Source of the DNA: an uncultured bacterium
GTDB lineage: Bacteria > UBA8481
Length of the DNA: 53,857 nt
Assembly (NCBI GenBank): GCA_964499705.1
Contig: CAZCME010000027.1
Location: forward strand, 1 to 53,857
Direction: 5' to 3'
Positions 919 to 17,574 of this stretch are shown here, one piece after another (within the stretch, counting starts at the first letter, position 1; every line of letters begins with the position of its first letter). The translations under genes were made by a program, and so were the position numbers. A model generated the notes under the pieces. The model did not search any database and was not told the DNA's origin. It saw only the letters and a list, made by a program, of their open reading frames with translations.

Positions 919-1121
919 TTCGTCTAACGATGACGATTGCTGAACTGCGCGACATGAAACCAAACCATTCATAAACTATGCGCAATCATAGCAAATCGAC
1001 CTGATCCGGGCGCGCCATTTGCCGCCTCTGCAAATGGCGTGAACGGATCACTTAACAATAACCCGCGCAGTTGCGCGTAGCGACCGAAGGGAGCGAAGCC
1101 AGCAATCGTTCGTTAGACGAA
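919..1121. repeat. Cassette-boundary element E1
   Basis: TTCGTCTAACGA(TG)ACGATTGCTG ... CAGCAATCGTTCGTTAGACGAA; terminal stem with 2-nt bulge plus internal stems. Confidence 0.9.
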
Positions 1122-1145
1122 AACCACTGATGGAATGACATGATG

Positions 1146-2027
1146 CTAATGCATGCCAGTCTTTTTGACCATACCGCCCTCGACGTCGGCTAATGGATGC
1201 ATGGTGATAAAGGCGTTGCTATCATATTCGCGAACGATTGCTCGCACCCGAGAGATTTCAAGTCGAGTTACCACGCACAATAGAATGTCACGCTCTTCGT
1301 CAGTCAGACCGCCCCTGCCCCGGAATACGGTGACACCGCGCCCGAGATCCTTGGTTATTGCCAACCGAATGTCTGAACTGCGGGAACTGATGATGGTGAT
1401 GGACGTGTATTCCTCAAGACCATAGATGACAAAATTGAGAGTCTTTGCGGCGGCAAGATACGTCAGGATCGAGTACAGTGCGGCTTCGACACCGAGCACG
1501 GACATGGCTACGAGAAACAGCACTACGTTGAATCCCAATATCACATCACCAACGCGAACTATTCTAAAGCGCTTGCTGATTAGCAGAGCGGCGATTTCGG
1601 TTCCGTCCAGTACTGCTCCACCGCGTACAGCAAGGCCGATGCCTGCGCCGATAAAGAAGCCGCCGAATACTGCCGTAAGTACAAGATCCGGTGTTACATC
1701 AGGATAAGGAATAACCACCAAAGCAACCGCTAGACCCGATATTGCAAGTACGCTTCGAATGGCAAACACGCCGCTGATATGGCGATAGCCGACGATGACA
1801 AATGGAACATTGACTAGCGGGAGCCAAATGGCGAGTGGTATCGGCGTGATCTTTGAAAGTAACATAGACACACCGGTAACGCCGCCATCAATGAAATTGC
1901 TGGAGAGGAGAAATCCGTTGAGTCCCATTCCCGCCGATATGACGCCGAGGGATATGAGTAAGAAGTTGCACGTCTCCGGAAGGAATCGTGTGCGAAACGC
2001 ATGCCATCTGGTAATCTGCGTGCTCAT
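1146..2027 (-). CDS. YitT family membrane protein
   Basis: DGGVTGVS and GAVLDGTEI motifs, TM region, C-terminal GRGVT...DSNAFITM domain. Confidence 0.9.
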   Translation of the reverse strand: MSTQITRWHAFRTRFLPETCNFLLISLGVISAGMGLNGFLLSSNFIDGGVTGVSMLLSKITPIPLAIWLPLVNVPFVIVGYRHISGVFAIRSVLAISGLAVALVVIPYPDVTPDLVLTAVFGGFFIGAGIGLAVRGGAVLDGTEIAALLISKRFRIVRVGDVILGFNVVLFLVAMSVLGVEAALYSILTYLAAAKTLNFVIYGLEEYTSITIISSRSSDIRLAITKDLGRGVTVFRGRGGLTDEERDILLCVVTRLEISRVRAIVREYDSNAFITMHPLADVEGGMVKKTGMH

Positions 2028-2193
2028 CGGGAAGTATCACGGGCTGAGGGCGGCGGAGGGATAGGTTTGCCGCATGACTGACAGGGAACGGTGTCGGCCC
2101 GACGAGATTTGTCGACCATCTGCGTGCGCTTGCAACTTGGACAAGTGCGCTTCAGATGAAATACGGTTGCAATAATAGCTTGGAATATTGGAT

Positions 2194-2721
2194 TCATAAT
2201 GTCATCTTTCCGAGAAGTTCGCCGAGGTCAAGTCTCCCCGTCGTCATTGCCAATTTGCCTTCCGCATCGTGCGGCCACTCCTCGGGCGGACGATCGCGAT
2301 AAAGCTCGACTCCGTTTCCATCGGGGTCCTCGAGGTAAATCGCCTCCGAAACGCCGTGATCTGATGCTCCCGTGATGGGATATCCCGCTTCGATCAACCG
2401 CCTTACGGCGCGCGCCAGTTCGCGACGGTCCGGATAGAGAATCGCTACATGATAAAGCCCTGTCGACCGAGGAGGCGGAGCCGCGCCGTCCGAACTTTCC
2501 CATGTATTGAGACCGATGTGATGATGATATCCGCCTGCCGAGAGGAATGCGGCGCCGGGATAACGCTGTTGAACTTCGAAACCGAGGAGATCGCGCCAGA
2601 ACGAGAGCGACCGATCAAGATCGGAGACTTTAAGATGAACATGCCCGATCCGGACACTGGGATGAATCCTTGCGGATTGGGGCGAAGGGTCCGCAACGTC
2701 AGCTGCCATGTGGTTCGTCAT
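2194..2721 (-). CDS. VOC/glyoxalase family protein (CatE-like)
   Basis: IGHVHLKVSDL, GGYHHHIGLNTW, GLYHVAIL, DHGVSEAIYLEDPDGNGVELYRD. Confidence 0.9.
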   Translation of the reverse strand: MTNHMAADVADPSPQSARIHPSVRIGHVHLKVSDLDRSLSFWRDLLGFEVQQRYPGAAFLSAGGYHHHIGLNTWESSDGAAPPPRSTGLYHVAILYPDRRELARAVRRLIEAGYPITGASDHGVSEAIYLEDPDGNGVELYRDRPPEEWPHDAEGKLAMTTGRLDLGELLGKMTL

Positions 2722-2786
2722 CGCCTGTCATCTGGAAAAGCGAAGATGCAGAAGAATGGGAAACTATACAGCAACGACACCGACGC

Positions 2787-2979
2787 TTCGCCTAACGATT
2801 CAGTTTGTCGAACGTTTTGCACGGCGCGTCGCGTGCGGCATGCCAATAACCTACCCTGGATCATGACCATTACATTATCACAACCGATCCCGCGCAAGAA
2901 GCATTAGCACGCGGCGTGACGTGCAAAAGGTTGCGCGGAGGAGCGAAGCGACGTAGCCGACAAACTGACGTTAGACGAA
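2787..2979. repeat. Cassette-boundary element E2
   Basis: TTCGCCTAACG(AT)TCAGTTTGTCG ... CGACAAACTGACGTTAGACGAA. Confidence 0.9.
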
Positions 2980-3034
2980 AACCAGCGTAGGTAATCATTA
3001 TACCTATCGCGCGCATACCTATGGTAAATGGGTG

Positions 3035-4522
3035 CTAATAGACAGGTATACCCTGTCCCGATCTTTTGCCGTCGAAAGTGGGTATAAGCCGTAAGTTATC
3101 TACCGGTTTAGAAATGTCTCGTGGCGGCGCAAACTGTTTCTCAATGAGGTTGCGTAATATTTCGGCCCAATCAGAGGGACTTCCGTCTAGGATGCTAACG
3201 TGGAGAGGATTGTCGGGGTCATAATCTACAGCATCGAGTGGGTTCATCTCATAAAGCTGAGCCAAAGCGCTGCGCGCTTCGGATTCTCTTTCCAACTTTG
3301 TATAACATTCTCCGATGCGATACAGCTGCATGCGAACATCATATAATGACGTATCGCCCACACTGAATGCTCGTTCGTAGGCGCGTACGGCTTCAGAATA
3401 ATTGGCGGGGGGCGGACGATACACGCGTAAGTCGCCTAAGCGCGCCCAGAGCCTCCAATTATCAGGATCATTTCGAATAGTGCGAGAGACTAAATCAACG
3501 GCGCGGTCGAGTTCACCATTATGAGCTAATGAATAGCTAAAATCTAAGACGACCCCAGACATTGCAGATGGGGCGTGAGGTTCATCTTGTAGTAATTTTA
3601 TCGTGATTTCAAAATGTTCGATAGAATCATCTAAGGTGCATAATATAGGACCAATCCAGCCGCCGTCACCCTCATTCCATTCACGCGATTGATTAGCCAA
3701 GTGAAGCTGATAACAAACTCGAGCCAGCGAATAGTGCGCTTGGGCACTGTTCGGAAATGCGCGCACATACCTTTCTGCCGAATGAAGAGCATCGGGAGCA
3801 TCCCTTCGTGATGCGGCTTCTCTATGCGCGGTTAAGAACGGCAGTTCGTCCACGTTTAGCGAAAAGCTTGATCTGAGTGGACGTAGCTGTCGGCATTCAA
3901 TGTTCCTTATATACTTTGACGGAATAGCAAAGTTGATAGATTGACCGGCGAGAATAGAGGACGTAACAATGCCTATTACTCGTCCATTACGGTTTATGAT
4001 CGGCGAGCCACTCGATCCAGGTGAAATCGGCGCTGTGATTTGCAATTGACTGCGACTATTATGGGTACGAACACCAGAAACTATCCCGGTAGAAACTGTG
4101 CCTTGAAGGCCAAGTGGACTGCCAATTACAACGATTTCTTCTCCTATGGTCGGGTCAATCGTCTCGAGTCTAAGATAAGGAAGTCTGTCGCCGTCGATTT
4201 TTAATATCGCGAGGTCGCTATTCTTATCATAACCATAAATGCCAGAGACCTGGTAACGAACACCGTTGCTTGCGATTGCCCATATCGTCGTTCCTCCAGC
4301 CAGTGCATGAAAATTTGTTATCAGCTTACCGTCCTGAGAAATCAAGAAACCAGTGGCTGAACTAACTTCGTTGCCGCTTTCGCCAAAAACCTCTAGTAGG
4401 TACACGGCGTTCTTGGCAGAACCAGCAAGGCGTGCTGCATTGAGTGAATGGCCATTGGTGCTTGTGAAGGCGACTAGGAAAAGGAATCCGAGCAGCCTGA
4501 ATCTGGTCGTGCGTATTAACAT
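3035..4522 (-). CDS. Secreted trypsin-like (S1C) serine protease with TPR-like C-terminus
   Basis: Signal peptide; triad motifs TNFHAL, DLAILK, PGSSGSP; helical TPR-like repeats. Confidence 0.85.
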   Translation of the reverse strand: MLIRTTRFRLLGFLFLVAFTSTNGHSLNAARLAGSAKNAVYLLEVFGESGNEVSSATGFLISQDGKLITNFHALAGGTTIWAIASNGVRYQVSGIYGYDKNSDLAILKIDGDRLPYLRLETIDPTIGEEIVVIGSPLGLQGTVSTGIVSGVRTHNSRSQLQITAPISPGSSGSPIINRNGRVIGIVTSSILAGQSINFAIPSKYIRNIECRQLRPLRSSFSLNVDELPFLTAHREAASRRDAPDALHSAERYVRAFPNSAQAHYSLARVCYQLHLANQSREWNEGDGGWIGPILCTLDDSIEHFEITIKLLQDEPHAPSAMSGVVLDFSYSLAHNGELDRAVDLVSRTIRNDPDNWRLWARLGDLRVYRPPPANYSEAVRAYERAFSVGDTSLYDVRMQLYRIGECYTKLERESEARSALAQLYEMNPLDAVDYDPDNPLHVSILDGSPSDWAEILRNLIEKQFAPPRDISKPVDNLRLIPTFDGKRSGQGIPVY

Positions 4523-4735
4523 AAGTAATTCATAGTATAGAACTTAGTGCCTGATGTCGCCATTGTACATGCGATATGGAATTATGGGTAAGAGGAATCT
4601 TTGCACGCGAAGATGAATGGAAAATTGGATGGGCGCGCAATCTGCGGATAGGAAATAGCACGGTGTAAACGAGAGGGCTGCCATCGATATTCCTACGACG
4701 AGTCATTTTACCAATTCTGGAAGGAGGCGGAGGGG

Positions 4736-5545
4736 TCATTCCGCATGATCCTGATAATCGCCTATTGCTTGAATTAGTTCGCGTACTTCTGTGGGGCGAT
4801 AAATCCGGGGATTCCATGACAAGTGACATTGGGTGCCAATGGATGCCCAGTGGCCGTCGAGAACGATGTAGTCGCAATAGGCGAGAGGAACAACCGAATG
4901 GAAATAGTCCATAGCATGGTTTCTTGTAATCGGGAAATCCTGTTTACAGATTAGCTCTAATATCTTTCCGTTGGTAATATATGCGCGACGGTTGTTGGCG
5001 ACAGCAGAGACGTCGAATGCCTTTCCTTGAAGGCGCGGATTCGCTTTCCACTGAGCACGAGCTTTTGTGAGGAATCGGACAATGTCATCCGAAACAGCTA
5101 TTCTGCGCGGGGTTATCGAATCCTGATATTCCTTCTCGGCAACGGCATCGAAGATTGGGGCGATGGACATAGTGGTCGCGTCGATGAAATGACGGAACTC
5201 CTTCAGGAAACTGATGTCAAACCACACCTCATTTTCCCCCGGGCATAATTCGCGATCTGACACTGCCCCCGGCGTGGATTCAATAGGAATCCAATGTTGC
5301 CCCACACCAGCTATCACATTCTTGATCTTCATCAGGGAATCTGGACTGCTTGCCGAAAACTCCACCAAGTTCATTATGGAAACAGCGAGCGTACCATTCT
5401 TTGCGACGGCTGAAACCAGGTCTGCGAGAAGAGAGATGTCCTTTTCAAGGAGTATGAGCCCACAGTTATCAAGATAGACAAGAGGGCGACGACAAGGAAA
5501 AGAATAGGTCAGAATGCCCTCACTTTTCAAGGAGAGTTCAGGCAT
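4736..5545 (-). CDS. Hypothetical protein, possibly PIN-like nuclease fold
   Basis: ATG 5545 with GGAGG upstream; VYLDN near the N-terminus and DYFH...YCDYIVLD near the C-terminus resemble PIN-like acidic motifs. Confidence 0.55.
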   Translation of the reverse strand: MPELSLKSEGILTYSFPCRRPLVYLDNCGLILLEKDISLLADLVSAVAKNGTLAVSIMNLVEFSASSPDSLMKIKNVIAGVGQHWIPIESTPGAVSDRELCPGENEVWFDISFLKEFRHFIDATTMSIAPIFDAVAEKEYQDSITPRRIAVSDDIVRFLTKARAQWKANPRLQGKAFDVSAVANNRRAYITNGKILELICKQDFPITRNHAMDYFHSVVPLAYCDYIVLDGHWASIGTQCHLSWNPRIYRPTEVRELIQAIGDYQDHAE

Positions 5546-5752
5546 GAGGCCTCCGGCGCTGGCCTTCGCCTGGGACTCGCGATGAGCAACACCTCTCGTT
5601 GAGCTGGGCGGGGCGCTTGCAGAACGGTGTGCGTCGAGGTGAATCATCAAGCGATATTCGGAACGATGCCGTCATCAACATAGAGTGCTGCAAGCGCCAT
5701 GCACGGCGGGCGATGCCAGACAAAGGGGAGTAATCATGCTCTCCCGCGGGTC

Positions 5753-5948
5753 TTCGTCTAACGATGACGATGGCCGAACCTGGAGCCCGGCGCGGCGAAT
5801 GCGACACGATGACAACCCCTCGCGAATCATCGCCACGATCTTATCATGAGCTATCGCCAACTAGAAACCCCTGCATTCGCCGTGACGGGCGGAAGGTTGC
5901 GCGGAGCGGCCAACAGGCCGCGTAGCCGGCCATCGTTCGTTAGACGAA
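5753..5948. repeat. Cassette-boundary element E3
   Basis: TTCGTCTAACGA(TG)ACGATGGCCG ... CGGCCATCGTTCGTTAGACGAA-CT-CCACC. Confidence 0.9.
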
Positions 5949-6023
5949 CTCCACCGTAGGCTTCGTTCCGAGCCCTTGGGCGCATGCATTCAGCAAATCC
6001 GCCTATCGACATAGTCAGTCGAT

Positions 6024-6052
6024 TTGCAAGCAATCGTAAAATCAGAGACAAT
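6024..6052 (+). promoter_or_regulatory. Candidate sigma70 promoter of the PIN toxin module
   Basis: TTGCAA-17 bp-GACAAT ending 6 nt before ATG 6059. Confidence 0.4.
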
Positions 6053-6058
6053 ACGCTT

Positions 6059-6544
6059 ATGAGCACCGTGTATCTGGAAACAACGATTCCGAGCTACCTG
6101 TCCAAAGCAGCGAGCACTGATCAAGTGTTCGAAGTGCATCGGTCGCTGACGTGGCAGTGGTGGAAAGAGTCGCGGCGCGAGTACGACTGTTTCGTTTCAG
6201 AGGCTGTTATCAAGGAACTCTCCCTTGGAACGCCTGACGCGGCTTCGCGCAGACTTGCATTCGTGTCTGAAATTCCGATATTGGCGGTAATGCCGGAAAT
6301 TGAGACGATGGCGCGTGAGTATCTTGGTGCCCTGCGTCTCCCGGACAAGGCGATTATTGACGCGGTCCACCTGTCTTACGTTATCAGGTATCGAGTAGAC
6401 TATCTCTTGACGTGGAACTGTAAGCATCTCGCGAACGGTGTGGTGAGACGCCGACTGCAGGAGTATAATGTCCCTAGAGGCGTTCATCTGCCGGTCATCG
6501 TGACGCCAGAAGAGTTACTGACGTCGAATATGGAGGAATTGTGA
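6059..6544 (+). CDS. PIN-domain (VapC-like) toxin
   Basis: MSTVYLETTIPSYL...SEAVIKEL...DAVHLS...YLLTWNCKHLAN...IVTPEEL. Confidence 0.85.
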   Translation: MSTVYLETTIPSYLSKAASTDQVFEVHRSLTWQWWKESRREYDCFVSEAVIKELSLGTPDAASRRLAFVSEIPILAVMPEIETMAREYLGALRLPDKAIIDAVHLSYVIRYRVDYLLTWNCKHLANGVVRRRLQEYNVPRGVHLPVIVTPEELLTSNMEEL

Positions 6545-6723
6545 TGAGCGAAGATTCCGTGGTGAAGGAAGTCCGAGAGGCGCGTGATGCGTTCGCGAAA
6601 GAGTGCAAGTATGACCCGCACATTATTCTGGCGCGCCTTCGAGAAGATGAGACCAAGCATGGCGAGCGCCTTGTGACGCCCGACGCATTCCAGAAGAAGT
6701 ATCCGACGCGCAATATCGCGTAG
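6541..6723 (+). CDS. Small protein coupled to the PIN gene, putative antitoxin
   Basis: Overlaps the PIN stop codon; EDSVVKEVREARDAFAKECKYD resembles small partners of this PIN group. Confidence 0.6.
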   Translation: MMSEDSVVKEVREARDAFAKECKYDPHIILARLREDETKHGERLVTPDAFQKKYPTRNIA

Positions 6724-6748
6724 ATTCGTACAGTTCTTCATGAACATA

Positions 6749-7240
6749 TTAGCGCCTGCACTCCATTAGCACGGCCTCGCCCCATCGTGTGATAATTGGA
6801 CCGGCAACGAGGATAAAGCCTGCCTTCTCGTATGCTCTCCGCGCACGCATGTTATTAGGATTGGGATCAGTGCCAACAGTTGGAGCGCCCTGCGCAAACA
6901 ATCGTTGCACGTGCGCGCGAACAAACGCGGTGCCATGTCCCTTGCCCAACATGTCGGCCTCCCCAATATACTGATCAATCCCGCGCGCCCCTGACGGCAA
7001 GTACGAGAACGGGTGAGGATCCCAACCATGCACGTCATAGTCTTGAGCAAAGGCGAACGGTCGGTCGTTATGTTCCACGATCCACATGGAAATTCGAGAA
7101 TCCGCTAGTTTCTCTGTTTCCTTCTCGATTTCGGGCGCCCCCCACCACTCGACTACATGTTCTGCGGCTCGCCAGCCAGCCAAGAGCGGCAAATCCGATA
7201 CAATGACAGGACGAAAGCAGTATGCATCAGTCGTGTTCAT
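6749..7240 (-). CDS. GNAT acetyltransferase, AAC(6')-like subfamily
   Basis: HVVEWWG, RGIDQYIGEADMLGKGHG, TDPNPNNMRARRAYEKAGF. Confidence 0.85.
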   Translation of the reverse strand: MNTTDAYCFRPVIVSDLPLLAGWRAAEHVVEWWGAPEIEKETEKLADSRISMWIVEHNDRPFAFAQDYDVHGWDPHPFSYLPSGARGIDQYIGEADMLGKGHGTAFVRAHVQRLFAQGAPTVGTDPNPNNMRARRAYEKAGFILVAGPIITRWGEAVLMECRR

Positions 7241-7275
7241 GGCGTTGACCGGCCATACGATGAGCCTAGCGGGAC

Positions 7276-7359
7276 TTCGTCTAACGTTTCAATAGCCGCG
7301 CATGCACTTCGGCTATTGTGCCGTATCAGGGCATTAGGCGAAGTGCAACTTCGCCTATT
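7276..7359. repeat. Short variant element E4 resembling the array-head site
   Basis: TTCGTCTAAC, hairpin CAATAGCCG/CGGCTATTG, then palindrome ATTAGGCGAA-GTGCAAC-TTCGCCTATT. Confidence 0.7.
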
Positions 7360-7500
7360 TTTTGCAATAGATGAGACAAGAAAAAAATAATTATTCACGT
7401 TGCTTTCCCCCAGCTGAAAGTCATAAATTAAAATTTACCACAGTTCCCATAGATGATTCAAGGGCGGGATCGATCTATGCTGGAGTGCGGCCACGAAAAC

Positions 7501-7815
7501 TCAGACAGCTCGGCGACGACGAAGACGAGTCACTACCTCATCAGCCGTAGCTTTCGCGATTCGAGAGACAAGTGCACTTCTTGAAGGGGTGTCCGCAGCA
7601 AGGCCGCGTTCAATCAGATCTCTAGCGACCGAAGTATAACCGGATGCCCCGCGCTTCAATGCCTCTGCGGATAGACGTTTCTTAACTTCCGGGGGAACGC
7701 GAAGCGTAAGCAGTACCAAGCTTTGTCGGCGCTTCGGCATTCGATATTTTGGCGTCTCATCAAATTCGGCCATCACTTCATTTAGTGACATGTTCTCAAT
7801 TCGTTTTGCCATCAC
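7501..7815 (-). CDS. Putative BrnA/CopG-type antitoxin (RHH DNA-binding)
   Basis: LTLRVPPEVKKRLSAEALKRGASGYTSVARDLI; directly downstream of BrnT-like gene. Confidence 0.75.
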   Translation of the reverse strand: MMAKRIENMSLNEVMAEFDETPKYRMPKRRQSLVLLTLRVPPEVKKRLSAEALKRGASGYTSVARDLIERGLAADTPSRSALVSRIAKATADEVVTRLRRRRAV

Positions 7816-7824
7816 TTCCTCCTT

Positions 7825-8109
7825 TTAACGACCAAACGCGGTAACTGGTCGGATATGCCCGTCGTCAATCTTGTCAATGACGATCACAAGATTTCTACCG
7901 CCCATGGTCTGCCCAGTGACCAAGTATCGGCGTTGATACTTCGCCTCTTTCCTGCGTTTCTTATGCGGCCGAACTTCGTATGCAGAAAGCTCGAATATTT
8001 CATCAACCTCGGTCTGTGCAACGGCGTGCTGCGCGATGTGCTCCAAGTTAACGTCATCCCAATCGAGGATGGGAGTTTCCGACCACGGTGGACGAGGCAT
8101 AGGCGACAT
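7825..8109 (-). CDS. BrnT-family toxin
   Basis: LDWDDVNLEHIAQHAV...EVDEIF...YLVTGQTMGGRNLVIV...IRPVTA. Confidence 0.8.
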   Translation of the reverse strand: MSPMPRPPWSETPILDWDDVNLEHIAQHAVAQTEVDEIFELSAYEVRPHKKRRKEAKYQRRYLVTGQTMGGRNLVIVIDKIDDGHIRPVTAFGR

Positions 8110-8123
8110 GGAACGTAGTACGA

Positions 8124-8152
8124 ATGTTATACGATCGCTCAGTCTGTGTCAA
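8124..8152 (-). promoter_or_regulatory. Candidate sigma70 promoter for brnT/brnA
   Basis: Minus strand TTGACA (8152-8147), 17 bp, TAACAT (8129-8124). Confidence 0.55.
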
Positions 8153-8223
8153 CGGCGAACAAATGAAAATGATGCGCTAGAACCTGAGAAAGGAAAGGCA
8201 AGCGGCTCCGCGGAGCGGTCGAC

Positions 8224-8422
8224 TTCGTCTAACGTTTGAGATTGGCGAACGTTTCGCACGGCGCGACGTTCGCGAGACGAAAATATGCGATGTGAATTCA
8301 TGAGCCGAAACTTATCAGAAACCCTCGAATGAATTCCACCCATGCGAACGGCGTGACGGGCGAAAGGTTGCGCGGAACGGCCCGCAAGGGCCGTGGAGCC
8401 GCCAATCTTCACGTTAGACGAA
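8224..8422. repeat. Cassette-boundary element E5
   Basis: TTCGTCTAACGTTTGAGATTGGCG ... CGCCAATCTTCACGTTAGACGAA-CG-CCACC. Confidence 0.9.
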
Positions 8423-8514
8423 CGCCACCGTTGAAACGTATCAAGCAATTCCGCTGCCATATTCATTCAAGCGCGCCAATCATATATAGAGCGAACACCA
8501 CATTAGACAATGAG

Positions 8515-9039
8515 CTAATCATCACGATCCCGCCTTTGCTCATACCAATCATGGAACTTTTCACATAGGACTTCCGAATCATTGCGGTCGTTCCAATTCT
8601 CCCCATAGCGTTTGCTCAAATACGTATCTTGGGCTGAATTATATCGACCGAGCTCAAAGGCCTCCAGAAACTTATAGTGATTATCTGTAACCCTCTTCTT
8701 GTCGGCTGATTGATGGCACTTCCTGCAAAGAACCTCGACGTCTTCTGGACGTTCGTCATGAAAATGCTCATAAGTCTTGTGATGAACTTCAAGACGTACC
8801 CCGACAGCACCACATTTCTCGCAGCGGCTATTTCGGATAGAGATAATGCCCTTACAAAAAATCCTCCATCTTGCCGACGAGATATACGCCTTGTATGCGT
8901 TCAGGAACTCAGGTGTGCCGTACGTTTTCGCCAATCGATCCTGCTCGATCTGTGTATCGTGTTCACGCCGTGCGCGTCCATTATCCCCCTCGAACAGAGA
9001 GCCTTGATATTTCAATGCCATGAGATTCCGTGTGGCCAA
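8515..9039 (-). CDS. HNH endonuclease
   Basis: YISSARW...CEKCG...LEVHHKTY...VEVLCRKCH; alternative start at 9021. Confidence 0.85.
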   Translation of the reverse strand: MATRNLMALKYQGSLFEGDNGRARREHDTQIEQDRLAKTYGTPEFLNAYKAYISSARWRIFCKGIISIRNSRCEKCGAVGVRLEVHHKTYEHFHDERPEDVEVLCRKCHQSADKKRVTDNHYKFLEAFELGRYNSAQDTYLSKRYGENWNDRNDSEVLCEKFHDWYEQRRDRDD

Positions 9040-9059
9040 GCTGGCGACAAGAGGTCGTC

Positions 9060-9477: not shown

Positions 9478-11034
9478 TCACTGATGCTGCCAACAGTAGC
9501 CGTCAGTGCCTGCACTACGGGAGCAACGATAGCCGCGCCTTGTCGTAGCTAGACAACGGCCATCGCTTTCATCTCGCGCGGGCCGTGAATAAGCAGCTGC
9601 TTCCGCTTCAGCTAATTTGGCCGCCCTCTCGACTTCCTGCTGGCGTCGCCGTTCTTCAACCTCAGCTTTCCGTTGTAGTCTCTTTGCTTCTGCATCAGCT
9701 TTCTCCTGTTGCCGCTTTGCCTCTGCGTAGACCTTCTGCTGTCGCCGCTTTTCCTCAGCCTCAACAATCTGCTGCTTTCGCTGTTCCTCAGCGATAGCTG
9801 ATCTAGCCTTTTGAATTAGTCGTCTCACCTCTGGCGATTGATCCGGTATCGAAATGTCAAAGATCACAGACATTCGTGCGACTTTTTCAGCAAGTGCGGA
9901 ATCTCCCGATGAAAGGTAGTTCTGCAATAAGACTCTGTAAACGTCCGTCAGATGCTCGCGAGAAACATTCTCCGGGGTAGCATGATCCAAATGAGTATTA
10001 TAGAGGATGACAGCAGCATCAGTATCGCCATTCAGCCACAGCGTATAAGCCTGGCTCAGTATCTGGTATGGTGTAGGCTGCTGATGGATGGCAGTAGTGG
10101 AAATAGTGTTTTGCGGGGGGCTTTGACTAGGAGCTGAATTTGATGAGTTCGCTTGCCGCGATGGCTGATAGGTCATTCCCACGATGAAGAAAGTTGCTAT
10201 GGTAATTACGGCTTTAGCTTTTCTACTATGCCATTTGTCTAACCAGAGCCAGATAAGACACACTGGCCAAACGCGGGAAGAAATAAAGAAATACAATATA
10301 AGATAATAAAATCTCCATTTTCCACGATTACGATACTTGTTCAGCTCGCTTGGGGCATCCAACCACGCTGTGAATTGATTCCATAAGCCATTCGAAATTG
10401 ATGAATTCTCTGCGGAAGGCTCTGTGACTTCGCGTTCATTTTCGATTCCGGCTGATGTTGAGTTCTGAGGGCGCTCAGAATCATCCGGATCAATGCCCAT
10501 CAATTCGAGCATATCCTTCGATAAAGTAAAAGCGCGGATCCCAGCGCGCTGGTATTTCTCTGTTTGATTGTTAATCGCAGCCTCGGCCATGTCGATGATA
10601 GCGTCGCAATAATGATCGTCTTTCTCGGCAATTTCCTGAGCAGCGCTGCCAATGGAAACGCGACGCCGAATCTTCGAAATAAGTTCTTTCCGTGCTTCGA
10701 TCGCCGATATTTGTTTTCGGATTTGTGCCTTTTGTTTACTTCCGGCGAGAATATTATTGACTGCTGCTTGGATATTCGTCGCCGCATTGCCTGGTTCCGT
10801 TACGTCCGTATTGGTCGATCGCATTGCCACTATGTATTCTTCCGCGCTGTTCAAATCTTGAATAATCGCCATTTCATTCTCGGAAACTAAACCACCGTTG
10901 GGAAGTTTCTCGATCCCTGTGACTACCCGTGCTGTCGCGATCTCGGAAATATCAGGCTGTATTGGAATCTCATTACTAACGAGGTGAAGATCCTTGAGAA
11001 ATGTCTCGATATTTAACTTATTGGCCACTATCAA
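9478..11034 (-). CDS. Hypothetical membrane protein with coiled coil and C-terminal Cys3-His motif
   Basis: 518 aa; central TM pair; E/K/R/Q-rich helix; ends CLATTRRGYRCSRSAGTDGYCWQHQ. Confidence 0.7.
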   Translation of the reverse strand: MIVANKLNIETFLKDLHLVSNEIPIQPDISEIATARVVTGIEKLPNGGLVSENEMAIIQDLNSAEEYIVAMRSTNTDVTEPGNAATNIQAAVNNILAGSKQKAQIRKQISAIEARKELISKIRRRVSIGSAAQEIAEKDDHYCDAIIDMAEAAINNQTEKYQRAGIRAFTLSKDMLELMGIDPDDSERPQNSTSAGIENEREVTEPSAENSSISNGLWNQFTAWLDAPSELNKYRNRGKWRFYYLILYFFISSRVWPVCLIWLWLDKWHSRKAKAVITIATFFIVGMTYQPSRQANSSNSAPSQSPPQNTISTTAIHQQPTPYQILSQAYTLWLNGDTDAAVILYNTHLDHATPENVSREHLTDVYRVLLQNYLSSGDSALAEKVARMSVIFDISIPDQSPEVRRLIQKARSAIAEEQRKQQIVEAEEKRRQQKVYAEAKRQQEKADAEAKRLQRKAEVEERRRQQEVERAAKLAEAEAAAYSRPARDESDGRCLATTRRGYRCSRSAGTDGYCWQHQ

Positions 11035-11651
11035 CCAAGCGTCATGTATTTATCAAGGAACTTCCGCGTAATGGCGTCCTCAAATACTTTTCGCGCCCGC
11101 TTGATGATATCGTCCGCTTCCAAATTAAAGTCTTTGGCAGATTCCCACGGCACTGGAACTGTTGCGAGCCCTACTGTTCCACCGCCACCCCATCCCATTT
11201 TCCGTGAACTGGAGCACTCCACGCCTTGAGGAAAGCAACTTATGATTTTCTCTTCTGCCTCCAAACCGCCTCGACACCAGACCCAAGGAAACAAACCACC
11301 GTTGTCGAGATAGATACCGATTTGGCGCACATATTTTCCTTCTTCATCTTTGCTTGGCGTACGAAGATCGAGTTTCAGCTGCCAGCTCTTTTGAACGGTA
11401 CTTGTTTTCGGAGATTTAAGCTTGAGCGATTCGATAGTCGCTAAGCGAGCCTGCAAATCCGAAACGCATGCTTCCAGCAAGGTGGCCGCCTCGATACAAG
11501 CCGCGTCACCAACAGCATTCACTTTCTTCTTGATAAGTTCAAGATCAGCGTGATGTTCGACTTCAGGAAGAGATTTTTCTTCCTCGTACAACTGGGTCAT
11601 CTCCGAATAATATTTTAGGTAGAACATGAGTGATTTTCCGATCGCCGCCAT
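11031..11651 (-). CDS. Hypothetical protein
   Basis: 206-aa ORF closely abutting or overlapping neighbours; GGAGG upstream. Confidence 0.7.
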   Translation of the reverse strand: MAAIGKSLMFYLKYYSEMTQLYEEEKSLPEVEHHADLELIKKKVNAVGDAACIEAATLLEACVSDLQARLATIESLKLKSPKTSTVQKSWQLKLDLRTPSKDEEGKYVRQIGIYLDNGGLFPWVWCRGGLEAEEKIISCFPQGVECSSSRKMGWGGGGTVGLATVPVPWESAKDFNLEADDIIKRARKVFEDAITRKFLDKYMTLG

Positions 11652-11653
11652 AT

Positions 11654-12580
11654 TTATTTTCCTCCTGTAAATCCTGATGAGAGATATTCGCTAATACGGT
11701 AAATGTCATCCTTCGTGGTAATATTTCCGCAATTCAGCAGGTAGAGATCTTTCAATACTCCAGTCATGTAGAGCCGTAGAAATTCGATTCCCGGCTTTTT
11801 ATCGAGTTTCGGTAGCTGCGTTCGAAATAGTGACATGAGTGTGATGAATGATATGGGAATCCATTGCGGTCCCCCACATTTGGATTTCGTTTCGGGCATC
11901 CTTCCTTGATCCGGAGTAAGAAAGACAAGGGCATGATGGTCCGAGAAAGAGATGCGTTCTTGAAGCAAGTTCTCATACCTCTCACACTGATCCTCTCCTT
12001 CGTCGGCCTCGACTTTGGCTTCCACGATCACCATCCATTCTTCAATCTTGTCGTCGGGCAGAGTCCATTTCCCGCGCATGAAGATATCGAGTCGATCACG
12101 GGTTTCCCCGCTGATTAACTCACACTCGATGCGCACGTCGTGCAGCTGTGGCTCGTGCGGCATTTCCATAAATATTTTCCCTAAAAATACACGGAGAAGT
12201 GCCTCTTTGAAACCATGGTCTTCATCGGGATTCATCAACCAACCAAGCGTGCGAGTATGGGCGGTTTCGCGAAGACCTAAATCGAGCGTGCCAAAGAGAC
12301 TGATTCGGCAGCGAAGGGGATCGTTGAGAGGTAGGTGTTCATACCAATCCGAACCGCCATCTAGCTTGTCGATCAACGTCAACTTCATGGTCTCAAACAG
12401 GCTCGCTAATTCTGAGTAATCATGATCCGTCAGTGTCTCGAGAAATTCACAGTCACGTGAAAGAGTTTTACTGACGACGTAAAGGTCGCTGACAAGCGCC
12501 TCGACATCTACACGCGTGGGATTGGGCGCGTATGCCAGATCGAGGTCGAAAATGAATTGCTTGGATATAGAGAGATTCAT
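11654..12580 (-). CDS. PD-(D/E)XK nuclease family protein
   Basis: ETAHTRTLGWLMNP...HGF, RLDIF, IVEAKV...EGEDQCERY. Confidence 0.8.
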   Translation of the reverse strand: MNLSISKQFIFDLDLAYAPNPTRVDVEALVSDLYVVSKTLSRDCEFLETLTDHDYSELASLFETMKLTLIDKLDGGSDWYEHLPLNDPLRCRISLFGTLDLGLRETAHTRTLGWLMNPDEDHGFKEALLRVFLGKIFMEMPHEPQLHDVRIECELISGETRDRLDIFMRGKWTLPDDKIEEWMVIVEAKVEADEGEDQCERYENLLQERISFSDHHALVFLTPDQGRMPETKSKCGGPQWIPISFITLMSLFRTQLPKLDKKPGIEFLRLYMTGVLKDLYLLNCGNITTKDDIYRISEYLSSGFTGGK

Positions 12581-12713
12581 GTGAGAACTATATGCTCCAA
12601 CGGTATTGTAGAAAGATTTTATTGTGGGCGAAAGCAGCGCGAGTCACACAAAAGGGGCGTGCACGGCGGGCGCCGCCAATCAAAGGAATGATATCAAGCT
12701 TCGTCTCAGAGAC

Positions 12714-12849
12714 TTCGCCTAATGTATAAGGTTCCGAAGCCGACGCGGAGCGCCACGGAAGAGAGGGGAACCGACGCTTCATCAGGTTCACCGAACGGTG
12801 GCGTGGAGCGTCGGGTTGCGCGCCAGCCGGAAAAGCGACGTCGGGCGAA
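12714..12849. repeat. Degenerate cassette-boundary element E7
   Basis: TTCGCCTAAT...TTCCGAAG...GGCGTG...GTTGCGCG...CGGAA...GTCGGGCGAA. Confidence 0.65.
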
Positions 12850-12941
12850 CTGACCGCCTTCCGTGATCGGGAGCTAATGAGAGAACGTAGCCCAAGCGTG
12901 CAACGAAACGCGCCCATCAGGCAAACCGACACGGAGGTCGG

Positions 12942-13138
12942 TTTGCCTGACGATTCGAATGGCCGAACTTGCAGACCGGCGTGACGTTTGCGGAATGACA
13001 ATGACCATCGCATATCAATTCAACTTCACAACTACACGAGCCATCATGATATAACAACCTCAGCAAACGGCATGACGGTTTGCAAGTTAGCGGGAGCGCC
13101 CGCCAGGGCGCGGACGCGGCCATTCGGCATTAGACGAA
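12942..13138. repeat. Cassette-boundary element E8
   Basis: TTTGCCTGACGATTCGAATGGCCG ... CGGCCATTCGGCATTAGACGAA-GC-CCACC. Confidence 0.8.
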
Positions 13139-13291
13139 GCCCACCCTTGATATGAATCAAGCTCAACCCACGAGAAGTTCATTCAAGCGCTCCGATCATG
13201 CATAAGTGCAGGCAACGGACTGAAATCTGCAGATACACGCAAACCCGTCATATTATTTTCACAATAGAGTAAGTGGATGCCCGTTGCCATA

Positions 13292-14146
13292 TCACTTTTG
13301 AAGGGACTCCAGCCGCCGCTTGCCATCATATGTCCATTTTATACGTACCCGCTGACCGATCTCGACGCGACCGACAGAGGCGGCAAATGTCTTCGTGTCC
13401 GCAATACCGCCGTTACGAGAAGTAAGCTTAGGAACGTAGCGTGTCGCAAATCCGGTATCGGAACGAATATCAATCCAATACTCACCGTCCCAATATTTGC
13501 CAATATCTGTGACAATACCTGATGTTCTACCAGATGTGGCGCGAGGTGTGAGAGTCTCAATCTTCACCATCCATGGCATCAATTCATTGTAATCGTATGA
13601 TTTCCATGAGAGGCGAATTATGCCTTCTGGAGGAATCTTTCCCATAAATTGCATTAGCGCCCTTCTGGCTGCCCTATGTTCGGGCAATTCTTCTCCCACG
13701 TAATAGGGATTGTCAGGAACAGGTGATAACCGATCTGCTACGAATTCAACCATGAGATGCGTACCTTCTTCAGAAATATTGCGGCGAACAGAGGAAGCGA
13801 TACAAATGATGCATTCAGAGTCGATTGTATAGTCTTTGAGACCGGCGTGATCGCGATCGCCCGTTTGACGGATGGCAACTCCCCGGGAAGTAGACTCAGT
13901 TTCAGCTTTCAATGTAATCGAACCAGGAAATAAGCCCGTCCCCACGTTTAGTTCTGTGAGTATTCCAACTATGCAGGCGTCCCATGACTCATTTGGCGTG
14001 GCGTCTTTCGGCGCGTCGTATCGTTTGGATTTATCAATGTCAGCAAGCTCTGATGCTGAAGCCCTTGTAGCAACCATGCCAATGAACAATATCGATACTG
14101 TGTATACCAACACATATCTGGACCGACGACGGTGATTGTCTACCAT
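13292..14146 (-). CDS. Hypothetical secreted protein
   Basis: 284 aa, N-terminal signal-like segment, GGAGG upstream. Confidence 0.65.
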   Translation of the reverse strand: MVDNHRRRSRYVLVYTVSILFIGMVATRASASELADIDKSKRYDAPKDATPNESWDACIVGILTELNVGTGLFPGSITLKAETESTSRGVAIRQTGDRDHAGLKDYTIDSECIICIASSVRRNISEEGTHLMVEFVADRLSPVPDNPYYVGEELPEHRAARRALMQFMGKIPPEGIIRLSWKSYDYNELMPWMVKIETLTPRATSGRTSGIVTDIGKYWDGEYWIDIRSDTGFATRYVPKLTSRNGGIADTKTFAASVGRVEIGQRVRIKWTYDGKRRLESLQK

Positions 14147-14175
14147 ATTTTCCTCCTAATTATAACGATTTGAGA

Positions 14176-14325
14176 TCATTGATGCTGCCAACAATAACCG
14201 TCAGCGCCAGCACTTCGCGAACAACGATCGCCTCGCCTAGTAATAGCAAGACAACGACCATCACTTTCATTGCGGGCGGGCCGTCCATAATTATAATTAT
14301 GGCTATTCCTCGCCATAATCCACAT
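14176..14325 (-). CDS. Small Cys3-His peptide ORF, not in the ORF track; could be the frameshifted tail of the 369-aa gene
   Basis: Translates MWIMARNSHNYNYGRPARNESDGRCLAITRRGDRCSRSAGADGYCWQHQ*, homologous to the C-terminus of 9478-11034. Confidence 0.6.
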   Translation of the reverse strand: MWIMARNSHNYNYGRPARNESDGRCLAITRRGDRCSRSAGADGYCWQHQ

Positions 14326-15412
14326 ATAGAATCTTTATTACTGGTAATCGCCTAACAAAGCGCCCTTCGCCGGTGATGATAGTTTTCATACCAGCGATTT
14401 TCGCAATTATTGTACCGTAGAAATCTGATAGATCGCTGTTAGCATATCTTGAGTTGGCCGCTGATAATATGAAGCCACTTCCGAAAAGATACATATTCTT
14501 ATTATCGGTAAATGGCTCAGATATTTGCCCCTGTAACTGGATAGTTTTACCGTTGAAACCTGAAAGATCTGCAAGAATATCTTCCGGATCAACTTCAGAC
14601 GGCATGAAATAGAATGTTGCAACATCGAGTGAATCAATCCGAGATGGATTTATTTTGCGCCTAATTTTAGCGGCTATTGATTTTCGAGATGCGCCCTCCT
14701 CCATACCGGAGGCAAATGCTATCGCTTTGACAAAGTCACCTTCTGCAAGGGCGCGTTGCGCTTCTACAAGATCCTCTTTTGACTCTTCATGAAGCCCTTT
14801 GCGAAAGGCTACTTTTGCTCGTTCGAGATAGACCAGAGCTTTCTCGGCTTCAATTGAGCCTGAGTAGCGCGAGTTCAACTCGGCGCATAATTCTTCCAAA
14901 TCCGACACCGAACCGAGATCTTCATACCAACTCGCAAGACGAAGAAGCGCTTTAAGATGACGACGGCGCAAGCCCGTCGCTGACGTATCTGAAACATGAA
15001 TGCTTACAGGTTTTCCAAATGCCGTTCTCTCGCTCGATGCGATGTATGACCCATTCAAGCAACAAAGGTCATCGCCGGTCAGAATCATGCTAAGATTCTC
15101 AGTATCTCGCATTACTATAGTCGCGAACGTCATGGCGCGAGTTAGACCACGCTCAGCAATCCGTTTATCAATATATTCGCGAAGCTGATACTGGCTGGAT
15201 AAATTTAGCTCGTCGGAATCAATTCGGATTATCACGTCGCCCGCTTCCAAGTCCGCCACGGGGTTCAATATTCCATTTGGTTTCGGGATACTAGTTACTA
15301 AGAAATCAGCAGTCACACATGTCGGAATTGATAAAATCATGAGAGTCAGGCAAATTCCTACCAATAATGTCCTTATCACAATATCACGCCTCCTTAAAAT
15401 CGTCAGTGTCAA
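14303..15412 (-). CDS. Hypothetical secreted protein with PDZ-like segment
   Basis: Signal-like N-terminus, LEAGDVIIRID, helical region; true start may lie slightly downstream. Confidence 0.6.
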   Translation of the reverse strand: MTLTILRRRDIVIRTLLVGICLTLMILSIPTCVTADFLVTSIPKPNGILNPVADLEAGDVIIRIDSDELNLSSQYQLREYIDKRIAERGLTRAMTFATIVMRDTENLSMILTGDDLCCLNGSYIASSERTAFGKPVSIHVSDTSATGLRRRHLKALLRLASWYEDLGSVSDLEELCAELNSRYSGSIEAEKALVYLERAKVAFRKGLHEESKEDLVEAQRALAEGDFVKAIAFASGMEEGASRKSIAAKIRRKINPSRIDSLDVATFYFMPSEVDPEDILADLSGFNGKTIQLQGQISEPFTDNKNMYLFGSGFILSAANSRYANSDLSDFYGTIIAKIAGMKTIITGEGRFVRRLPVIKILYVDYGEE

Positions 15413-16064
15413 ATCGGAATCCGCAATAACGGCATTTTACGGCCTCGTATTTGATCATTTCTGCACACTCAGGACATTTTTTGTTAGGTTCGCCACTCTC
15501 CACCGGCATTGGCATCGACAGAACGGATACCTTTGCCTCTCGCGTTTTATGCCACTGCTTATCTATCAATGAAAAGGCAAGGTTGACGCCTGCTGCCGCG
15601 GGGAGATACTCTTTAAAAAATGATGAGTTATTTCCTGATGCCCGCACAAATACATTTCCACCCTGTTCAACGCCGGTAAGATCACTGAAGAGGTTTTGCT
15701 CCACGACCATATGCCCCGTGGCAAGCATGCTGGTGGCGATTACTCGCCGCTCAGTAATGACAGAGATACCGTAAACGAGCGGACTACGGAATGATCTTGG
15801 CACTTCGCGCCAAAAGACGCCAATCGGTGGCTCCTTTCTCAAGTCGAGCCCCGGGATTCGCTGTGCGAGAATTACAGGAATATATGGTGGCAATCCTCGC
15901 GCGGTCGGTTCGAAATGCCAGACAACGGAGCTGAAGCAACCGCATCTGAATATTTTTCTGGTTGACATATTATTAGATATATTCCGGTTTCGCGCTCGAA
16001 TCAACATGTAATATCCACCCAATACTGGTGAAATCATAATAAGTATCAGAATAATAGCTACCAT
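15384..16064 (-). CDS. Membrane-anchored protein with C-terminal zinc ribbon
   Basis: N-terminal TM; KKCPECAEMIKYEAVKCRYCG. Confidence 0.75.
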   Translation of the reverse strand: MVAIILILIMISPVLGGYYMLIRARNRNISNNMSTRKIFRCGCFSSVVWHFEPTARGLPPYIPVILAQRIPGLDLRKEPPIGVFWREVPRSFRSPLVYGISVITERRVIATSMLATGHMVVEQNLFSDLTGVEQGGNVFVRASGNNSSFFKEYLPAAAGVNLAFSLIDKQWHKTREAKVSVLSMPMPVESGEPNKKCPECAEMIKYEAVKCRYCGFRFDTDDFKEA

Positions 16065-16167
16065 CTATCTAAACCCTCCGTAAACGAGATACACCTCGCC
16101 GAGTAGACTTGAACCGAGTGGCCGATATCACCACAGAGGGGATGTTATCAAGCGTCGGCACTGACAC

Positions 16168-16306
16168 TTCGCCTAACGATTGTGATTTCCGAACTTGCGG
16201 ATTGGCGCGACGGTTGCCGCTTTTGCAACCGGCGTGACGATTCGCAAGTTGCGCGGAAGCGGCCCGCTTCTGGCCGCTGTAGCCGGAAATCAGCGCGTTA
16301 GGCGAA
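16168..16306. repeat. Cassette-boundary element E9 (short)
   Basis: Arms nearly identical to E6: TTCGCCTAACGATTGTGATTTCCGAACTT ... CGGAAATCAGCGCGTTAGGCGAA-CT-CCACC. Confidence 0.9.
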
Positions 16307-16346
16307 CTCCACCGTTGAGAGATATATAACTTCGGGCACCCGCCCA

Positions 16347-16589
16347 TCACAACAAATATCTCCCGATTTTGAGAGATCCGTGAAATACACCAATAACATC
16401 TACATCCCGATCTTGCTTGATTAAATATGCAATTCGATAATGGCCGTACAGAAGAATCCGAATGTGGCGATCAGTGATATCCCAATACCGATATCCAGAT
16501 TCGGAGAAGTCTCGCAATATTTGAGAGTGGTCGTATATCGATTGGATAAGGTGGAGAGCCACGTCTGGGGTCGCGGCCTCGGCCATCAT
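16347..16589 (-). pseudogene. ParE/RelE-family toxin, N-terminally truncated
   Basis: LRDFSESG...RILLYGHYRIAYLI...VDVIGVFHGS; expected N-terminal strand/helix is missing and no antitoxin is adjacent. Confidence 0.65.
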
Positions 16590-16593
16590 CCTC

Positions 16594-16674
16594 CTCTTAC
16601 GTTGCCGATAAGCGGCCCGAAACGGCGGCGCAACGCGCCGCTGTTGGGGGTCCGTGTTCATCGACGGGTTAGAC
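16594..16674 (-). other. Canonical-type attC site
   Basis: Minus strand GTCTAAC-CCGTCGATGAACACGG...CCGCTTATCGGCAAC-GTAAGAG; R'' overlaps the TAA stop of the upstream gene; 81 bp; R' deviates from GTTRRRY. Confidence 0.75.
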
Positions 16675-17259
16675 CTGTGCTTGCGTAAGACGAATATCGA
16701 CTTCTCGGTCGACGTATTTCCATTCCTCTGACGCACGCAGTTCGGAAAGCAGCCTGTTGAACTCAACCTCATGAATTGGCGCGTATTCGAACCAATTCAG
16801 AAAATCGAACGGTTCATTCTCTGAGAGGTCCCGGCAGTGGTGGAGCTTGCGCGCTACTGCAGGCAAGTACTGAAGCCCGATTTGGACGTGCTTCGACTGT
16901 TCGAAAACGCTCCGGCGTTCGTCTTGCGTGAGATCCCACCAAGCTGCGTTCTTCCGGATCGGTATTAGCGCAGCGCACGTTGCTTCTGGGCGCGCCAGAC
17001 CTTGCTGCTTCGCTACAATTTCATTCTTCTCTGCGCGCATGACATATCGTTCATTGCTGGTTATTCCACGAAGTATCCAGGGTGCATTGGTTTCAGACTG
17101 CACCTCTGAAGCGGATACGACGTTGAGCCTTTTGGCTTCAGGCAGGGGCTCGCCAACTCTGGTTTCGGCTCTGACAATCCGCCAAGGGCCAATGTCTGCG
17201 CCGACGAATGCAAATAATCGTGTATTCGCCATCAAGTTCTGTTCAACGTATCCAGCCAT
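16669..17259 (-). CDS. Chlorite dismutase-family (Cld/DyP-like) heme protein
   Basis: LIPIRKNAAWWDLTQDERR...H...LPAVARKLHHCRDL...FDFLNWFEY...EEWKYVDRE; GAGGAG RBS. Confidence 0.85.
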   Translation of the reverse strand: MAGYVEQNLMANTRLFAFVGADIGPWRIVRAETRVGEPLPEAKRLNVVSASEVQSETNAPWILRGITSNERYVMRAEKNEIVAKQQGLARPEATCAALIPIRKNAAWWDLTQDERRSVFEQSKHVQIGLQYLPAVARKLHHCRDLSENEPFDFLNWFEYAPIHEVEFNRLLSELRASEEWKYVDREVDIRLTQAQV

Positions 17260-17372
17260 AACACTCTCCTCGAAGAATATTGTCTATCCTAATTACAAGC
17301 TACACAACAATGCGTCCAATAAATGCATCTCACCCGCAGGTAGGTCGATATTCAGTCGCCTCCGCGGAGCGG

Positions 17373-17574
17373 TTCGACTAACGTTGTGGCTGTCCGAACC
17401 GGGCGGCGGCACCCAGATCGAGAATCAAAAGCTGACAAGCACCAGGGCAAATGGACAGGGGCGGGCGCGTCGCTTGCGTCTTTTTGCAAGCGGCGTGAAC
17501 GACCCATCATCGCCACGCCCGGTTGCGCGAAACGACCGCAGGGAGTGGAGCCGGACAGCCGCACGTTAGACGAA
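17373..17574. repeat. Cassette-boundary element E10
   Basis: TTCGACTAACGTTGTGGCTGTCCG ... CGGACAGCCGCACGTTAGACGAA-CCC-CCACC. Confidence 0.9.

Follow-up and report, generated by a model that had tools for sequence, protein, structure and literature searches.

The window analysed here is the whole stretch of 53,857 nucleotides (nt) that forms positions 1 to 53,857 of contig CAZCME010000027.1, from an uncultured bacterium of the UBA8481 lineage (assembly GCA_964499705.1). Its first 17,574 nt hold an array in which nine whole boundary elements, one element truncated by the contig start and one degenerate copy (E7a) separate gene cassettes. Beyond the last element lie a lone attI-like site and the gene of a tyrosine recombinase, P0001. 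An earlier account of this DNA, made from the letters alone (hereafter the sequence-only reading), had proposed that the elements share a branched fold maintained by compensatory changes; this fold, and the likely role of the elements as recombination sites, are the subject of the present analysis. The features are as follows, with scores in bits against a covariance model of the fold.

1-55, + strand: E0, an element truncated by the contig start and represented by its 3' part, with the side-branch hairpin, the 3' arm of the variable stem and a right box, CGTTAGACGAA, at 46-55.
919-1121, + strand: E1, a 203-nt three-way-junction element on its folding (bottom) strand; 167 bits.
2787-2979, + strand: E2, 193 nt; 173.5 bits.
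5753-5948, + strand: E3, 196 nt; 181.4 bits.
7276-7342, + strand: E4, a short form of 67 nt that has the same boxes, a single stem and a small hairpin on the 3' arm; weak, 24.4 bits.
8224-8422, + strand: E5, 199 nt; 180.5 bits.
9060-9269, + strand: E6, 210 nt, with an outer stem and side branch like those of E8 and a long inner arm like that of E1.
12712-12855, + strand: E7a, degenerate, without a side branch.
12942-13138, + strand: E7, 197 nt, with degenerate boxes GCCTGAC and ATTAGAC; 172.5 bits.
16168-16306, + strand: E8, a minimal 139-nt version of the fold with a short inner arm; 127.4 bits.
17373-17574, + strand: E9 (E10 in the sequence-only reading), 202 nt, the last element before the lone half-site; 152.7 bits.
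18075-18110, + strand: attI-like site, a lone left-type box, CTTCGTCTAAC, followed by sequence spaced like the 5' arm of an element; conserved beside the orthologous recombinase of a related genome, G002.
18310-19665, - strand: tyrosine recombinase P0001, 451 amino acids, co-oriented with the cassette genes, with complete catalytic residues and no IntI-specific insertion.

Whole elements measure 193-210 nt in seven of nine cases, E8 (139 nt) and E4 (67 nt) being shorter. The element start reads TTCGNCTAACG and the element end CGTTAGNCGAA, and the integron core motifs GTCTAAC and GTTAGAC, or close variants of them, terminate both ends of all nine. The window contains 24 occurrences of the box GTTAGRCGAA with at most one mismatch, compared with a mean of 4.9 and a maximum of 12 in shuffled sequence, and within the 4.67-Mb genome paired boxes are confined to the contig of the array. 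This genome is a draft of 45 contigs with 96% completeness, and the array runs off the start of its contig.

Minimum-energy folds with DNA parameters were computed for all nine whole elements and follow one plan, eight of the elements sharing the three-way junction. The outermost part of the fold is an 11-base-pair (bp) R-box helix. Most of the spacer between the R and L boxes is paired. There is a net excess of 1-2 nt on the 5' (R') arm of the + strand (measured in seven window elements and judged by eye in E7), and before the perfect stem the spacer takes up 3-5 nt on the 5' arm versus 1-4 nt on the 3' arm. In E5, E6, E8 and E9 the spacers form small asymmetric internal loops. The variable stem, of 9-11 bp and free of bulges, differs between copies, and the three-way junction has no unpaired linkers. 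The long variable arm opens with an invariant AAC paired to GTT, a side branch (GCGCG...CG.AGC) stands on the 3' arm only, and an inner stem GGCGCG...GGCGTGA is present in the architecture of the fold. As an alternative view of the inner AAC/GTT pair, a second “L box” was considered and rejected, its orientation relative to the R box being direct and not inverted.

These folds give the architecture described in the sequence-only reading. The four variable stems quoted in the sequence-only reading, which had held that each element carries a different self-complementary stem, were all located: in E1, ACGATTGCTG (933-942) pairs with CAGCAATCGT (1100-1109); in E2, TCAGTTTGTCG with CGACAAACTGA; in E3, ACGATGGCCG with CGGCCATCGT; and in E9 (17373-17574), GGCTGTCCG with CGGACAGCC. 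The bulge of 1-2 nt that had been noticed beside the core corresponds to the net excess on the 5' arm of the + strand, and the conserved inner pairing to the invariant AAC with GTT. The further claim, that the elements differ from classical attC in having no unpaired spacer between the R and L boxes, stands to the extent that the spacer is mostly paired, but has to be qualified for the small internal loops of E5, E6, E8 and E9.

Applied to a MAFFT alignment of the eight long window copies, RNAalifold predicts the same structure. Among these copies 15 of 34 pairs have changed on both sides while 94.8% of cells remain paired, values that none of 500 shuffles matches; when partners are slid by 1-3 columns, the share of paired cells drops to 25-41%. 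The set was widened to 18 copies from four genomes by adding ten full-length copies from three other genomes, in a MAFFT realignment that was not fitted to the model. Here 21 of 34 pairs are compensatory and 89.5% of cells are paired (0 of 500 shuffles match; slid partners, 27-40%). These compensatory changes indicate that selection acts on structure and not on sequence: the fold is conserved by selection on structure rather than sequence, as had been proposed, and covariation, which the sequence-only reading had named as a check, exceeds that of all shuffles in both alignments. Two details of the fold are less uniform than had been supposed. The inner GGCGCG stem is present in the folds, but a strict search for a bulge-free helix recovers it, as 12-15 bp with differing inner sequences, in 10 of the 18 copies. 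The side branch is indeed limited to the 3' arm and its 5-bp base is present in 18 of 18 copies, but a clear distal hairpin, G+C-rich and varied in sequence, occurs in just nine, the remaining nine carrying a conserved purine-rich loop in the side branch.

Which strand folds can be read from both energy and wobble pairs. The fold of the + strand is more stable than that of the - strand in all nine elements, by 2.0-8.8 kcal/mol. The paired columns of the 18 copies contain 33 G·T cells versus 13 A·C cells, an A·C cell being the one that would be a wobble pair if the other strand folded; in the window copies alone the counts are 13 versus 1. This excess argues that folding takes place on the + strand, which is antisense to the cassette genes, so that a cassette mRNA would bear the weaker fold. 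The sequence-only reading had left the choice between a single-stranded DNA substrate and a structured RNA. The wobble bias, together with the core motifs at the ends, the foreign composition of the cassettes and the lone half-site by the recombinase, points to elements that work as single-stranded DNA; the first alternative fits, and the second does not. Rfam, also named there as a check, gives no match at gathering scores anywhere in the window, and at E values up to 1 over positions 1-20000 its sole match is a chance long non-coding RNA outside the elements; no described family thus matches them. A scan of 17300-20000 for promoters and terminators stays at chance level.

The recombinase at the end of the array has a full catalytic set. 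R222, K247, H317, R320, H343 and Y352 (R-K-H-R-H-Y) are invariant in a five-protein alignment, and PF00589 matches with an E value of 3e-41. The top NCBIfam model is the integron integrase TIGR02249, at 213 bits and thus below its cut-off of 265, followed by NF040815 (XerA/integron-integrase) at 211 bits, XerC at 170 and XerD at 167; no protein of the genome passes the integron-integrase cut-off. TIGR02249 is matched in two pieces, profile positions 2-180 and 224-314, with positions 181-223 skipped and four P0001 residues between the pieces, which indicates that the IntI-specific domain is absent from P0001. The closest solved structure is VchIntIA (2a3v), in which 56 residues stand where P0001 has 17. 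The KGxKxR and HxLRH motifs are 64-70 residues apart in all 37 members of the P0001 family (70 in P0001 itself) and 69-70 apart in the two Xer proteins of the genome, versus 106-107 residues in all 28 IntI measured (106 in IntI1), the IntI set being 30 representatives of which two lack the exact motif.

A quick maximum likelihood tree of 69 rows, with the genome's two Xer proteins as outgroup, places the 30 IntI in one group, with a Shimodaira-Hasegawa-like approximate likelihood ratio test (SH-aLRT) support of 100, and the 37 family rows in the other (SH-aLRT 80). Alignment columns in which fewer than half of the rows had a residue were removed, a step that should exclude the IntI-only insert (30 of 69 rows), and given the small outgroup of two proteins the tree shows only relative nearness to IntI. 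The orthologue of P0001 in G002, identical to P0003, has 49% identity. A search with P0001 alone found no relatives in genome contigs or in metagenome contigs, whereas the alignment of five proteins as query did find relatives.

The N-terminal region of P0001, of about 90 residues, is conserved in its closest relatives. An AlphaFold2 model of this domain (mean predicted local distance difference test score 86.5) has five strands and two helices, and the model matches the N-terminal domain of T4 UvsW (residues 1-87; Z 6.5, root-mean-square deviation 2.4 over 63 residues) and that of archaeal XPB (Foldseek E 0.05). The UvsW N-terminus has been described as a HARP domain, in which a sheet of five strands lies on two helices, and HARP is listed among junction-specific DNA-binding domains (PMC4666394). 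Pfam finds neither HARP nor another DNA-binding family in the N-terminal 97 residues of P0001 or in P0002-P0005. A HARP-like nature of the modelled domain is therefore suggestive only. As a separate observation, many IntI matches of canonical length begin only at residue 100-170 of proteins that are 400-520 residues long; integrases that retain the IntI insertion can thus have N-terminal extensions as well.

Between the array and the recombinase gene, the box at 18075-18084 has no partner and lies 225 nt from the recombinase stop codon, the site being downstream of the gene. Recombinase, lone box and cassette genes share a common orientation. In G002 the orthologue is likewise followed by sequence that can be aligned to the attI-like region and the element arms of the window. 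The array thus appears to be headed by a predicted attI next to the recombinase, as in integrons. Two further features of this region were noted. At 18165-18192, between the stop codon and the half-site, lies a perfect 26-nt palindrome, TTTGGGCGAAC ATAT GTTCGCCCAAA, partly conserved in G002 and a candidate for either an accessory binding site within the attI region or a terminator lacking a T tract. At 19712-19766, immediately upstream of the recombinase start codon, there is a run of CTCACT/CTCGCT hexamers, where public contigs appear to break.

Each cassette consists of one to three genes and ends in one element, and nearly all genes lie on the - strand. The G+C content is 50.1% in the array and 49.4% in the cassette DNA, compared with 60.3% in the rest of the window and 60.9% in the genome; the cassettes are foreign in composition. 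They encode BrnT/BrnA-like and ParE-like modules, a GNAT acetyltransferase, a glyoxalase, a YitT membrane protein, a trypsin-TPR protein, an HNH protein and a three-gene unit with a PD-(D/E)XK nuclease. Toxin-antitoxin pairs, GNAT, glyoxalase and nuclease-containing modules are contents typical of chromosomal integrons. The only + strand genes between elements are a two-gene pair in one cassette: at 5984-6723, inside the GNAT cassette, two overlapping genes (186 and 60 amino acids) without a family match run in the reversed orientation. A reversed overlapping gene pair is the usual layout of toxin-antitoxin systems in chromosomal integrons. The three-gene cassette at 9478-12580 combines the PD-(D/E)XK nuclease with a 206-amino acid protein of no known family and a 518-amino acid protein that has a DUF5763-like Cys motif at its end, and may be a defence module. 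The region of this C-terminal motif (9477-9592) is repeated in the next cassette (14175-14290) with 82% identity.

The comparison with relatives covers the genome itself and four others, of which G002, G003 and G004 belong to the same family and G001 to another. The covariance model of the fold finds 11 additional copies in the genomes of the same family, namely six in G002 (all within C1:784-14183), three in G003 and two in G004, and none in G001; in the window's own genome it finds only the eight training copies, all on the array contig (C27), plus a weak reverse-strand match on one of these. The arrays of the four related genomes resemble each other in the elements and one non-coding unit only, with the exception of a weak protein-level match between the YitT-like gene (1874-1990) and a stretch of G002 (33% identity over 39 residues). 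This restriction of similarity to the elements indicates that the sites are kept while the contents turn over. The non-coding unit, at 12712-13138, comprises E7a, a right-arm remnant (12895-12928) and E7. It has 71% identity over about 390 nt with G003 and is partly kept in G002 beside the recombinase, and on this conservation could be a cassette without an open reading frame (ORF) that has a role of its own. In public contigs, joints such as 41 to 5936 and 16237 to 1064 were considered as excision products and rejected, their 20-34-nt sides lying inside elements and being attributable to additional members of the family; extra copies with other variable stems are also suggested by loose ends at 1100 and 13096.

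Arrays of comparable layout recur beside homologous recombinases in other phyla. For this survey 160 homologue loci were retrieved with an alignment of the five closest proteins and searched for strict AAC...GTT hairpins; the finder was relaxed after a version demanding exact box complementarity had missed five of the nine window elements. Nine sites of about 130 nt lie downstream of the recombinase, and in the same orientation, in a metagenome-assembled genome of Ignavibacteriota (L091), as do nine sites of about 75 nt in Desulfitobacterium sp. Sab5 (L081) and three in L153. Site pairs are found in L089, L041, L005 and others, and additional sites in L101 and L090; in these five named loci, too, the sites follow the recombinase in its own orientation. 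Over the 160 loci, perfect hairpins of at least 10 bp occur at 0.705 per kb downstream versus 0.437 per kb upstream of the recombinase, and in the arrays of L091, L081, L089, L153 and L005 the R'-side spacer is 2-4 nt longer. Within 10916-14290 of L091 there are four copies of a cassette of about 320 nt that has no ORF. Each runs from G|TTAGCC to the G of the core that follows, and one copy begins at a lone GTTAGCC, an attI-like site, right after the recombinase gene. The limits of this repeated cassette place the cassette boundaries within R', as in integrons.

From these observations the elements are, quite probably, attC-type recombination sites of a chromosomal integron-like cassette array, a site type that is known in kind and variant in length, geometry and adjoining enzyme. 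In the mechanism that this suggests, the + strand (the bottom strand, antisense to the genes) would fold into the branched site once single-stranded, and P0001 would bind the folded site and cleave within CTAA|C of the R' box. The partner in the exchange of the cleaved strand would be another element or the attI-like half-site at 18075-18084, and replication would resolve the product, as in integrons. The HARP-like domain of the structural model might read the junction or the bulge in place of the missing IntI domain. That the L'' extrahelical bases are missing together with the IntI-specific domain would be a mechanistically sensible pairing.

Several points weigh against this reading. The window elements depart from attC in two defining features: they have none of the two or three extrahelical bases near L'', and their spacer is mostly paired, as opposed to the unpaired central spacer with 5-6 bases per arm of classical attC (PMC5027507). 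Work cited in PMC9024848 and 10.1101/2022.02.06.479319 holds that IntI is active only with its extra domain, so that an enzyme lacking this insert is assumed, in the present reading, to act on folded DNA. The family of P0001 appears nearer to IntI than to this genome's XerC/D, its status as sister of IntI being limited to the present sampling. For the N-terminal domain, the Z score of the UvsW match (6.5) is under the background of 7-8 stated for the tool, and Pfam finds no HARP at E values up to 10 in the N-terminal 97 residues. A P0001 orthologue was found in two of the five genomes of the phylum set and elements in four of five; in G003 (88% complete) and G004 (86%) elements are present and the orthologue was not found. 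The left (R') boxes are degenerate in E7 and in four copies from related genomes (G2d, G2e, G4a and G4b), and portions of the arrays may accordingly be immobile. Among the 160 homologue loci, many of them on short contigs, the strict finder gives at least two sites in just 12. The four public runs that cover the region contain it as short contigs only and give no direct sign of recombination.

Another explanation is that the array is an ordinary integron remnant, i.e. a cluster of attC sites without an integrase, whose true IntI was lost or left unassembled and beside which P0001 is an unrelated Xer-type neighbour. The canonical core motifs at the ends of the sites, the draft state of the genome with an array leaving the contig start, and the two relatives that have elements and no detected orthologue would all suit it. 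We nevertheless consider it unlikely: no protein of the genome reaches the integron-integrase cut-off, the order and orientation of recombinase, half-site and array recur in G002 and in several phyla, the P0001 family falls beside IntI and not with the genome's own Xer proteins, and extrahelical bases of the kind read by the IntI domain are missing from the sites. It is very improbable that the elements are structured RNAs, acting as 3' stabilisers or terminators of cassette transcripts or as antisense RNAs, with the fold selected as RNA. Each element does lie directly 3' of the last gene of its cassette, and the fold is stable and covarying, but both the wobble bias (33 versus 13) and the stability favour the strand antisense to the genes, Rfam has no match, and the promoter and terminator scan near the array end gives chance values. 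Nor would an RNA role account for the inverted arrangement of the core motifs, the unpaired half-site, the restriction to a single locus or the recombinase nearby. Imperfect intergenic palindromes with a common core are, finally, what would be expected of dispersed repetitive extragenic palindromes or elements like miniature inverted-repeat transposable elements, clustered by chance and without a role in cassette exchange. The copies are, however, not scattered but form one array per genome (C27 in the window's own genome, C1:784-14183 in G002), they are co-oriented with each other and with the genes, and the DNA they bound is compositionally foreign, which makes this account extremely unlikely.

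A wider reading of the recombination sites and their enzyme is doubtful, although it can be stated: a widespread sister lineage of IntI would run cassette arrays without the IntI domain, reading the bulge on the cleaved arm (and here the three-way junction too) through a HARP-like domain, as a second solution, independent or ancestral, to structure-specific recombination of single-stranded DNA. What defines an integron is an integrase with an extra domain that reads the extrahelical bases of folded attC sites, and this domain is held to enable the single-strand capture of cassettes. In the window, well-supported covarying sites without extrahelical bases adjoin an insert-less relative of IntI, and the pairing recurs in distant phyla. 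Sites and recombinase, unlike those of textbook integrons, thus bear on the origin of gene-capture systems. If the system is active, gene capture by folded DNA would be broader than present surveys indicate, the transition from Xer-type enzyme to integron integrase would be open to study in living intermediates, and a second set of structure-specific recombination sites would be usable as genetic tools; if the elements are inactive relics, they are still a clean case of structure-only conservation in DNA. Should the reading as a sister lineage be true, integron finders that require the IntI domain and classical attC models may overlook such systems.

Among known systems, the elements are closest in kind to the attC sites of sedentary chromosomal integrons (e.g. 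the Vibrio cholerae repeats, PMC5027507), with which they share the inverse core RYYYAAC and core GTTRRRY, the conservation of fold and not sequence, a more stable bottom strand, a long branchable terminal structure, one site closing each cassette, and sites that are alike within an array. For the window family the bottom strand is fixed by gene orientation, the lone half-site and the wobble bias. Classical attC sites carry RYYYAAC in the bottom-strand R', have extrahelical bases near L'' and measure 57-141 bp, and those of chromosomal integrons have long, at times branched, terminal structures (PMC5027507). The window elements, mostly 193-210 nt, exceed this range, inside which only E8 and E4 fall. 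Their extra bases stand on the R'-L' arm, beside the presumed cleavage point, where classical attC has them near L'', and the perfect three-way junction and the invariant second AAC/GTT pair also set them apart. Two class 1 attC sites from a plasmid, read by eye as controls, show the classical pattern: one has two extra L'' bases and a 5-by-5 spacer, and the other, of a blaIMP cassette, has a single extra L'' base and carries a side hairpin on its L'' arm, a branch that it has in common with the window elements. In the structure of VchIntIA with attC, the IntI-specific domain is reported to bind the L'' extrahelical bases.

The layout of the locus also has counterparts. With the integrons of Treponema and other Spirochaetota whose integrase is co-oriented (“inverted”) and with archaeal integrons that have attI downstream of intI (PMC4889954; 10.1101/2022.02.06.479319) it shares an integrase gene that points into the array, an attI on the downstream side of this gene, and co-oriented cassettes. 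The integrases of both are reported to have the IntI-specific domain, which P0001 and all 37 family members are without, and PMC4889954, PMC9024848 and 10.1101/2022.02.06.479319 define integron integrases by this extra domain. We found no description of insert-less integrons, or of attC-like sites with Xer-type recombinases, in the literature searched, which did not extend to the integrase lists in the supplements of these three papers. The only other tyrosine recombinases known to have single-stranded substrates, according to PMC5027507, are XerC and XerD acting on folded single-stranded phage DNA. That system integrates at dif and has no cassette array, attI or covarying family of sites, and P0001 groups with IntI and not with the Xer proteins of this genome; what the two share is that a folded single strand can, in principle, serve an enzyme of the Xer type without the insert as its substrate.

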